Below are positions 17,180 to 18,969 of a stretch of 64,000 bases of DNA, in pieces. The stretch is from assembly GCF_006345805.1 (NCBI RefSeq), contig NC_043005.1, forward strand, positions 85,250,001-85,314,000, in the 5' to 3' direction. The translations under genes were made by a program, and so were the position numbers. The stretch comes from Octopus sinensis (lineage: Eukaryota). Below the pieces are notes generated by a model. That model saw only the letters and a program-made list of their open reading frames with translations. It made no database searches and was not told the DNA's origin. Within the stretch, counting starts at the first letter, position 1. The number at the start of each line of letters is the position of its first letter.

Positions 17180-17810
17180 GGCACACTTGTTTTACAAGTT
17201 TGGCAAAATGATTTGACTCTACTCGATCATGCAATTTCCCCTCGCTCTCTTCTTTATCTTTTTTCCTCTCTTTCTTCTCTTTCAAAACTCCCCTTGACTC
17301 TTTTCTAGTATCCGATGATGAAGAGAACCAGACCCAAAACGTTATATTTCTACTCTGCAACTTTTTCCTTCAGCATCAACCTAATAACACTCACAGTGAA
17401 CATTTCTTGAAATTTTGCTGTTTTTTGTATTTGCTTTGCTCCCCTTCTCCTTCCCCCTTCTCTGTCTGTCTGTCTGTCTCTCTCTCTCCCTCTCTCTCTC
17501 TTTACAGTGTAATCATCATTAAAATTTAAGTTTTCTATACCAGAAGTATTCCAGCCTTGGCTTGAAACCTAACAGTGTTGATAGCCCAGCATTCAGGTTG
17601 AGTGCTTCTCTGGAAATAACCCAGCTTAACACCCTACCTGACCTTATATAGGGATACATTATTTTATTTGATATGGTAACCACTACACCACATGCCCACG
17701 GCCCACGGGCATATGGCATAGTGGTTAAGATCGTGGGCTACTAATCCCAAGATTCTGAGTTTGATTCCCGGCAATGATGTGAGTAATAATAATAATAATA
17801 ATAATAATAA

Positions 17811-18457
17811 AGCCAGACATAGTCTTAATTGAGAAAGAAAACAAATTATGCTGAATCATAGTTGTGATTGATGAAAAAGGTGGTAGTAGTACAAATAATT
17901 GTCGAAGCCCTGGGAACAGTGAGTAAAAGTCTTGAGAAGTATGTGGAACAACTAGGGGCTGCAATAAGGGTGGAGCACTTGCAGAAAACAGCACTGCTTG
18001 GAACCACCCAAATACTCCAGAGGGTGCTCGAAAAATAAGAGGTGTTACCTTAGTTCACTGGAAGTGAACAGCTGACACTGTAGTACATCTCCAGCATTAG
18101 AAGCTGTGCTAAGGCAATCATAGTAATAATAATAATAATAATAAAGCCAGACATAGTCTTAATTGAGAAAGAAAACAAATTATGCTGAATCATAGTTGTG
18201 ATTGATGAAAAAGGTGGTAGTAGTACAAATAATTGTCGAAGCCCTGGGAACAGTGAGTAAAAGTCTTGAGAAGTATGTGGAACAACTAGGGGCTGCAATA
18301 AGGGTGGAGCACTTGCAGAAAACAGCACTGCTTGGAACCACCCAAATACTCCAGAGGGTGCTCGAAAAATAAGAGGTGTTACCTTAGTTCACTGGAAGTG
18401 AACAGCTGACACTGTAGTACATCTCCAGCATTAGAAGCTGTGCTAAGGCAATCATAG
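17811..18457 (+). pseudogene. Two tandem 334-bp copies of an R4/Dong-clade (RLE) non-LTR retrotransposon 3' end inside (TAA)n
   Basis: KPDIVLIEKENKLC*II (PD motif), then MKKVVVVQIIVEALGTVSKSLEKYVEQLG...LQKTALLGTTQILQRVLEK*. Units start at 17811 and 18145, each flanked by TAA repeats. Confidence 0.85.
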
Positions 18458-18520
18458 TAATAATAATAATAATATCAAAAAGTATCTTAGAATGAGAACC
18501 CACGTTCAAAATTTCCCTAA

Positions 18521-18566
18521 GACACCTGATGAAGGCTGGAGGGTATATTAGCTGAAACGTTGTGTT
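18521..18566 (+). ncRNA. Minimal type-I hammerhead ribozyme motif
   Basis: GACAC-CTGATGA-A-GGCTG-gagggtatat-TAGCT-GAAAC-GTT-GTGTT: 5-bp stem I, palindromic AACGTT stem III, GUU triplet, wobble pairs in stem II. Confidence 0.75.
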
Positions 18567-18969
18567 AACAACAAACAAGATGAGGACAAATATTCGTCAA
18601 ATGTAAATAATGTAAATAATGTACATAATTCCTCATCCTTTAAATATAGAACTGGCTTATATAGGACTGTATAGATATTTATATAGCAATTGATCAAACT
18701 GACAAAAAGTACAAAAACCCTACTCCCTCCCCTTTAATTTTCTCCATATATTTACCTGTTTTGTTTCGATACACTCACTCTTTTATGAAAAAAAAAAAAT
18801 GCCTTCAGCTGTTTTGCCTAAATTGTACATTCAATATTTGTTGGACATGACTTCTTTAAACAGCTCAACCAATACATTTAAAGTGGGAAGACCATTAAAA
18901 TATTTGTGATGTTCCGTATTTACTTCAATGAATTTTAAATATCATAAAGAAATAAGTAAAATAAAAGGA

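Follow-up and report, generated by a model that had tools for sequence, protein, structure and literature searches.

The best comparison for the repeat unit analysed here is PAc, the Poseidon element of Anolis carolinensis described by Frangieh et al. (2024, PMC11167929), a Penelope-like element (PLE) with pseudo-LTRs (pLTRs) and an ORF that joins a reverse transcriptase (RT) to an endonuclease (EN) of the GIY-YIG type at the C terminus. Its ORF start overlaps a hammerhead ribozyme, and reverse transcription starts internally at two sites within the ORF start, the sequence between them being an optional tail of 30-40 nt that is bounded by two 3' ends. Both strands are cut and extended, inverted arms are found, the first 172 nt of the ORF are required and ribozyme cleavage is dispensable. 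In the portion of the paper that was available, the element is described without a tRNA-derived module or a Pol III promoter. The minimal hammerheads of metazoan PLEs were characterised by Cervera and de la Pena (2014, PMC4209133); according to the available text, these lack loop III and display a palindromic 15.2-16.2 segment, a short stem I and an extra nucleotide before stem II, which is 7-8 bp long for S. mansoni.

A Pol III-type promoter or tRNA beside a hammerhead is known from the SM-alpha and Sj-alpha repeats of Schistosoma and from non-LTR retrozymes (PMC6765202, PMC4918200, PMC7229834), the Schistosoma repeats being SINE-like combinations of the hammerhead with a Pol III promoter (PMC6765202), for which a tRNA-Glu is named (PMC4918200). 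As far as the accessible parts of these sources go, SM-alpha and the retrozymes consist of tandem units that do not encode protein and that have canonical ribozymes and circular RNAs, and PLEs have been proposed as the mobilisers of retrozymes (PMC7229834, PMC11722881). By the SINEBase definition (PMC3531059, available text), SINEs are Pol III elements dependent on LINEs, the tRNA-derived ones being short, present in very many copies and equipped with an A box and a B box at a distance of 10-15 nt to the 5' end, and autonomous retrotransposons are Pol II units. Last, Helenus, Ajax and Cassandra (Kojima 2024, PMC10886601) are, in the accessible part of that account, non-autonomous LTR elements with a small-RNA-gene sequence inside the terminal repeat.

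The window, a stretch of 64,000 nt from the Octopus sinensis genome, holds a unit that the first-pass annotation had taken for a separate non-autonomous element, in which a tRNA-derived head, a (TAA)n tract, a hammerhead and a fixed tail would be mobilised by borrowed Penelope machinery. That machinery was indeed found, in the form of an RT + GIY-YIG ORF element that carries the unit, but the separateness of the unit found no support: almost certainly, the whole of it, including the head, forms the pLTR of a Penelope/Poseidon-type element that is autonomous, with the ribozyme and the tail in the frame of its ORF. The octopus element shares with PAc the single ORF for RT and GIY-YIG EN, the pLTRs, the overlap between ORF start and hammerhead, the pair of 3' ends within the ORF start that delimit an optional tail, and the inverted arms, and differs from it in a tail of about 25 nt, in a sense strand devoid of TTTT and in that most copies start at the tRNA-derived module. 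Unlike SM-alpha and the retrozymes, the unit is part of a coding element, contains a minimal ribozyme, is rarely arranged in direct tandem and has its ends off the cut site. It resembles tRNA-derived SINEs in length, boxes and abundance, whereas it lacks a LINE partner and a simple-repeat 3' tail, has few target-site duplications (TSDs) and is common end to end with an autonomous PLE, a context that also sets it apart from Helenus, Ajax and Cassandra. Octopuses reportedly possess tRNA-derived SINEs of their own, OK, OR1 and OR2, said to have been described by Ohshima and Okada in 1994.

The earlier suggestion that such a combination was undescribed survives in part. A Pol III promoter next to a hammerhead is already known in Schistosoma, and a literature search conducted mostly outside subscription papers found no tRNA-derived promoter in an autonomous PLE in the texts as available; the family may be deposited as a Penelope or a SINE. 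What appears to be new is the candidate Pol III module inside an autonomous PLE, not the pairing of tRNA and hammerhead as such. To our knowledge, beyond D. virilis Penelope there is little information on how PLEs are transcribed. With a putative Pol III module in a PLE and tens of thousands of SINE-like products, the octopus family would blur the line between SINEs and autonomous elements; it is a candidate origin for PLE-mobilised tRNA repeats and offers a sharp candidate start site, and copies of such PLEs can be mis-annotated as SINEs.

Anatomy of the unit in the window

Family coordinates take as their zero the G with which the tRNA-like sequence opens (window position 17707), which puts the unit end at 268; features are on the plus strand unless stated otherwise. 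The tRNA-derived head (17707..17780) contains an A box TGGCATAGTGG at 17714-24, an anticodon-like loop CTACTAA at 17738-44 and a B box GTTTGATTCC at 17759-68, the last being a CpG-decayed form of GTTCGATTCC, the commonest B box among family copies, in which the commonest A box is TGGCGTAGTGG. The A box, the 33-nt spacer, the B box and the 10-15-nt distance to the 5' end agree with the Pol III consensus for boxes and spacing in the available text of PMC8969392, which upholds the earlier description of a tRNA-like, Pol III-type head. A 6-nt leader GCCCAC (17701..17706) constitutes the 5' end of the window copy, falls within the pile-up of 5' ends at -9..+9 treated below and marks the putative Pol III start region. 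Upstream of it, the opening 21 nt of the head recur in inverted orientation as a partial copy (17677..17697, minus strand), a PLE-type inverted 5' arm.

When the head was scored against 43 tRNA sequences of 11 types, Arg-TCT came out best as a candidate parent, with Cys close; a short pattern search for a tRNA-Thr-type parent found nothing. ARAGORN called no tRNA in the window, and the folding of the head was not significant (z 0.0 and 1.09), with an acceptor stem that pairs poorly and no tRNA fold. Rfam returned no tRNA or hammerhead family among the 150 of 176 window matches listed, nor among the 7 matches of a clean copy, so the identification of both head and ribozyme rests on motifs and pairing. 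A TATA-like TTTATAA at -36..-30 was not counted, since none stood out by eye upstream of 27 tRNA genes. Elsewhere in the window (48876-48934, minus strand), a different tRNA-like SINE head is 75% like that of the unit over 59 nt.

The (TAA)n tract (17784..17808) varies in length among copies and is often the target of later insertions. It is followed here by an insert foreign to the element (17809..18457), made up of two tandem 334-bp units (17788-18455) that are identical at 333/334 bases; it can be read as a broken 3' end from a non-LTR element with a REL endonuclease, presumably Dong/R4, and has no Pfam match. The two units look far younger than the host copy, their near-identity reflecting either a recent tandem duplication or an assembly artefact. 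Beyond the insert, an ATG (18492..18494) opens the PLE ORF where the frame is intact, the window copy having one frameshift and one stop. The minimal type I hammerhead (18521..18566) overlaps ORF codons and is succeeded by further N-terminal codons with 9-nt ATGTAAATA repeats (18567..18629), position 18629 corresponding to the first 3'-end cluster, and by the tail (18630..18654) between the two 3'-end clusters, which in tandem copies continues directly into the ORF body. The A box, loop, B box, TAA tract, hammerhead, tail and inverted head copy were all located where the first-pass annotation had put them, save that the tail end, itself confirmed, lies at 18654, one base further on.

The same annotation had pointed to two further copies. 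At 16821-17099, the ribozyme does recur, in a tail-less arm (16821..16925, minus strand) and, head to head with it, a tail-bearing arm with expanded 9-nt repeats (16934..17099), and the tRNA head is absent. At 63681..63788 (minus strand), the proposed linkage of head and tail is real in that 21 nt of the head are fused to the post-ribozyme part and tail, and an internal deletion has left no hammerhead; a short opposite arm of the head (63789..63804, plus strand) adjoins it. Counting these arms and that at 17677-97, a 5' inverted duplication is present at all three loci, as had been asserted.

In the hammerhead, GACAC at 18521 pairs with the GTGTT that ends at 18566 to form stem I, and the core motifs are CTGATGA at 18526 and GAAACGTT at 18554-61. 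The result is a 5-bp stem I, an extra A before stem II, a palindromic AACGTT and no loop III, as in other metazoan PLEs, with a stem II of only 5-6 bp and a predicted GUU cut after 18561. Its designation as a minimal PLE-type hammerhead was borne out by the motif being intact at the majority of the copies' columns; both core halves are intact in 31/136 aged copies, and among the 44 long and 70 short arms the CTGATGA/CTGAAGA variants occur in both classes (28/5 and 32/8). When folded as a single strand, the window ribozyme gave no significant result (z 0.23) and copy L379 a z of -2.1; by prediction, cutting would require a dimer or assistance from protein. Formation of the 5' ends by the ribozyme was considered and rejected with 1/30 of the 5' ends at the predicted cut site; no footprint of self-cleavage is seen, and the ribozyme is probably not needed for insertion.

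Of 80 loci of relatives on metagenome contigs, 44 were examined; two related assemblies supplied most of them, and their identity to P0001, one of the closest proteins, is 30-54%. A hammerhead-like motif lies 3' of the ORF in 24 of the 44 loci, and the relatives L291, L295 and L300 have GUC as the cut triplet in place of the GUU of the octopus unit. No tRNA module was found between ORF and ribozyme in the 44 loci, except for a weak B-box-like match in L299.

The autonomous element and its pseudo-LTR

Sequence upstream of the head proved common to 7 of the first 58 loci, and a search with it yielded 30 loci (including the query locus and four copies of one locus), in 29 of which the head directly follows, the 3' part also being present in 29. 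The head begins ~30 nt after the stop of an RT + GIY-YIG ORF in 29/30. The near-full copy L121 (duplicate L122) has a broken ORF of about 2.3 kb, in which the RT matches PF00078 (E 9e-9) and the C-terminal domain matches a profile made from Pfam GIY-YIG-positive loci (E 1e-4). Pfam itself offered no family for the EN or the N-terminus, and a PDB sequence search gave just weak group II intron-like RT matches. By fold, the C-terminal domain resembles the I-TevI catalytic domain (probability 0.94, target TM 0.72, E only 0.43), in a structure model with a pLDDT of 64 overall and about 90 in the GIY-YIG-like domain. The order within the single ORF is RT and then C-terminal GIY-YIG EN, and all copies examined carry ORF-breaking stops or frameshifts. 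The EN has the CCHH motif and lacks the CX2-5CxxC linker, which is the Penelope/Poseidon pattern in the available text of PMC8557442, and it is by this motif pattern that the element is placed as a Penelope/Poseidon-type PLE.

A search with the ORF start likewise gave 30 loci, with the sense pLTR, represented by the 3' end of the unit, directly upstream in 25. The pLTR reaches the head in seven of them, four being true tandems that extend into the previous EN, and the arrangement in L437 is pLTR-ORF-pLTR. In the natural copy L398, no stop interrupts the frame between the ATG and the ORF body, ribozyme and tail included, and its N-terminus matches relative P0003 at 45/96 residues (E 4e-23); the hammerhead and the supposed fixed tail are the first ~55 codons of the ORF. 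Given the L398 frame, the tandem loci and the position of the head after the ORF stop, the ribozyme and tail are read as coding sequence and the unit as a pseudo-LTR. An autonomous Penelope sharing the tail, as envisaged in the first-pass annotation, is thereby at hand, the tail being its ORF start.

Exact 18-mers from the head (+29), the ribozyme (+140) and the post-ribozyme part (+197) occur 5,447, 7,943 and 12,900 times in the 2.72-Gb genome, and the reversed-pattern controls have 0 matches, so the unit is not a product of chance. The +29 and +197 counts calibrate to ~23,000-36,000 arms and the +140 count to a noisy 57,000, which gives the unit a copy number of the order of 10^4; two family loci were met in 15 arbitrary 10-kb stretches. 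Non-CpG divergence of the copies from the majority is ~5-6%. Head and 3' part co-occur on the same strand in 28/29 best-hit loci, and 50/59 unselected head hits are linked to a 3' part within ~780 nt, 8 of the 9 unlinked ones breaking off inside the TAA tract. Four loci within 1.8 Mb of contig C1 (L226, L227, L229 and L230) have identical insertion junctions and are a segmental duplication carrying one copy.

Where copies start and end

The sample of 5' ends comes from contig C1, where exact head matches were taken in the order of their listing; nine of the first 71 were passed over, some as already sampled, and the 60 regions obtained gave 62 head hits, or 59 after four copies of one locus were collapsed. 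There are 37 ends in -9..+9, 11 in +10..+28, 3 in -10..-29, resembling short fold-backs, and 8 further upstream, one of whose positions was judged by eye. Expressed as per-base 5'-end loss, this amounts to 5.9% (-9..+9), 1.0% (+10..+28), 1.6% (-10..-29) and 0.64% (-30..-450), and about 85% of head-bearing copies (51/59) start at the head. Copies without an inverted arm behave similarly, 20/29 ending at -8..+5. The exact end positions are blurred because the 5' end lies on a small hairpin, TGCCC-AC-GGGCA, at which some copies fold back. Genome-wide, the 18-mer count jumps from 1,006 at -28 to 5,447 at +29, or from about 2,700 to 23,000 after calibration; the 18-mer at -191 has 958 exact matches and was exact in 0/9 of the calibration set. 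Among the seven ORF-start loci whose pLTR reaches the head, three start at -7, -2 and +3 and run 419, 339 and 861 nt into the ORF, respectively, and RNAs with a 5' end at the head are thus not limited to the short unit; among 20 extended loci, none has a copy that stretches from the head across the complete ORF into the 3' pLTR.

The 3' ends of 128 arms gather in two clusters ~25 nt apart, 55 at 235-244 and 61 at 260-268, about 130 and 155 nt after the ATG. In three copies (L431, L434 and L446), the end falls within the ORF body at position 419-421, which may represent a third priming site of minor use. The 41 head-to-head pairs, which include one locus counted twice, comprise 40 with one tail, none with two and one scored as tail-less, against an expectation under independence of ~9 two-tailed, 20 one-tailed and 11 tail-less. 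The exception is the 16.8-kb pair of the window, whose plus arm does carry the tail, split off by repeat expansion. With a single tail in 40/41 pairs, the model of internal priming at two sites is confirmed by a large set of natural copies. The predicted excess of inverted 5' junctions is apparent in 33/62 head hits with an inverted neighbour, and direct neighbours in tandem number 2, versus the 41 head-to-head pairs. TSDs are few, direct repeats of at least 7 nt flanking 3/20 simple copies (control 0.3%), and the 3' ends are fixed and free of a simple-repeat tail, with a PLE as the partner. The insertion marks are those of PLEs.

A probable Pol III promoter within the element and the rival readings

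The preferred reading, to which a probability of roughly 0.65 is assigned on the strength of sequence comparisons, is that the tRNA-derived head serves as an internal Pol III promoter of the element and that the short SINE-like copies are by-products of the element's RNA. Pol III would start 3-8 nt before the tRNA-like sequence in the upstream pLTR and read on through ribozyme, tail and ORF. By analogy with the in vitro results for anole Poseidon in the available text of PMC11167929, the RT/GIY-YIG protein would then nick AT-rich DNA and prime internally at the two sites bounding the tail. Priming in the 5' pLTR would yield a ~270-nt head-to-tail SINE-like copy, priming in the 3' pLTR a long and usually 5'-truncated one, and extension of both nicked strands the head-to-head pairs. 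The short copies would probably be dead ends for the most part, since the part of the ORF downstream of the priming sites is missing from them.

A further pointer is the deficit of TTTT in the sense strand. L121 contains 0 in 2,618 nt where 5.7 are expected (P 0.002, base or triplet shuffles), although it shrinks to a modest one when a synonymous-codon null is applied (2.6 expected, P 0.046), and freeing the Phe codons gives P 0.011. In copies amounting to 27,250 nt, TTTT makes up 8/194 runs of three or more T, none of them at column majority, versus 45/199 in ten relatives (0.29 versus 3.0 per kb), the copies being non-independent and the ancestral test coming down to 14 such runs at column majority. 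Another PLE family of the same genome has 6-9 TTTT per ORF, and 23/27 tRNA genes of this genome have TTTT within 40 nt downstream; the relative L292, also with 0 TTTT in 1,577 nt, is a counter-case. The lack of TTTT is hence suggestive of Pol III transcription and falls short of proof. Two points weigh against a Pol III transcript, namely the translation of an uncapped RNA and the LINE-like internal promoter with intron of D. virilis Penelope (PMC2377424, available text). In the contigs of four runs, which come from four organisms, every one of the 30 element bins is covered; these contigs carry no start, strand or level information. The bolder proposal that the whole element (about 2.6 kb) is transcribed end to end by Pol III from a captured tRNA gene, its ORF having been purged of TTTT, is tentative and rather doubtful; if true, it would provide a route from Penelope elements to tRNA SINEs and tRNA-bearing retrozymes.

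The prevalence of head-started copies, many of them with intact A and B boxes in a unit without TTTT, could also be explained by a true SINE offshoot, in which Pol III transcribes the intact-box short copies themselves and the PLE protein mobilises them anew in trans, putative non-autonomous PLE derivatives being on record (PMC8557442, available text). Such an offshoot is unlikely, for in a small sample there is no position with a differing majority base between 44 long and 70 short arms, and their divergence is alike (4.9% versus 6.3%), with the proviso that the short set was picked by exact pattern and a young short-only subfamily could escape ~100 arms. Past the tail, moreover, the bases agree over 2-5 nt with the way the ORF continues (T 36, A 38, T 23, T 24 and A 23 of 46), an agreement to which AT-rich targets could contribute. 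Together, these observations are in line with an origin of the short copies from the element's own RNA, at its 5' pLTR. The rarity of tandem short arrays and the ORF sequence beyond the priming sites that anole Poseidon requires (PMC11167929, available text) are likewise hard to accommodate in an offshoot.

About as improbable is a Pol II or read-through transcript, the 5' ends at the head then arising from RNase P-type cutting or from cDNA snap-back at TGCCC-AC-GGGCA. It would account for the 6/59 ends at the first base of the tRNA-like sequence and for the fold-back junctions, and since 4/7 loci are true tandems that extend upstream of the head, longer RNAs must sometimes be templates. Nevertheless, 14 ends are found at -8..-3 and thus upstream of where RNase P would cut, the acceptor stem pairs poorly, the head does not adopt a tRNA fold, a structural block would be expected at the 3' side of the fold, and the TTTT deficit is left without account. 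The idea of ordinary 5'-truncated PLE copies with a passive tRNA or SINE remnant in the 3' UTR, in keeping with the heavy 5' truncation of PLEs (PMC8557442, available text), the likeness of head + (TAA)n to a simple retroposed tRNA and the relatives whose ribozyme lacks a head, is largely refuted and very improbable, as the 5'-end rate at the head is 6-9 times that on either side and the genome-wide 18-mer counts step there.

Other PLE-like sequences were met along the way. A genome search with PF01541 recovered other PLE families, 0/30 loci sharing the head or the tail; one of these families is large and younger (L067, L068, L082 and L088), with open frames of up to 883 codons and a pLTR that contains a hammerhead-like core of the U3-A8 variant (TTGATAA...GAAAC). 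Within the window, a hammerhead-like motif unrelated to the pLTR family lies at 43391-43422 on the minus strand (CTGATGA, stem GGGATAT/ATATCCC, GAAAC). A PLE-like fragment of a different family (41175-42682) has minus-strand frames, with a GIY-YIG match below the threshold (PF01541, E 0.0013), enclosed by inverted arms of 378 bp (98%), and a further pair of 207-bp inverted arms (95%), 652 nt apart, is found at 38131-39196.
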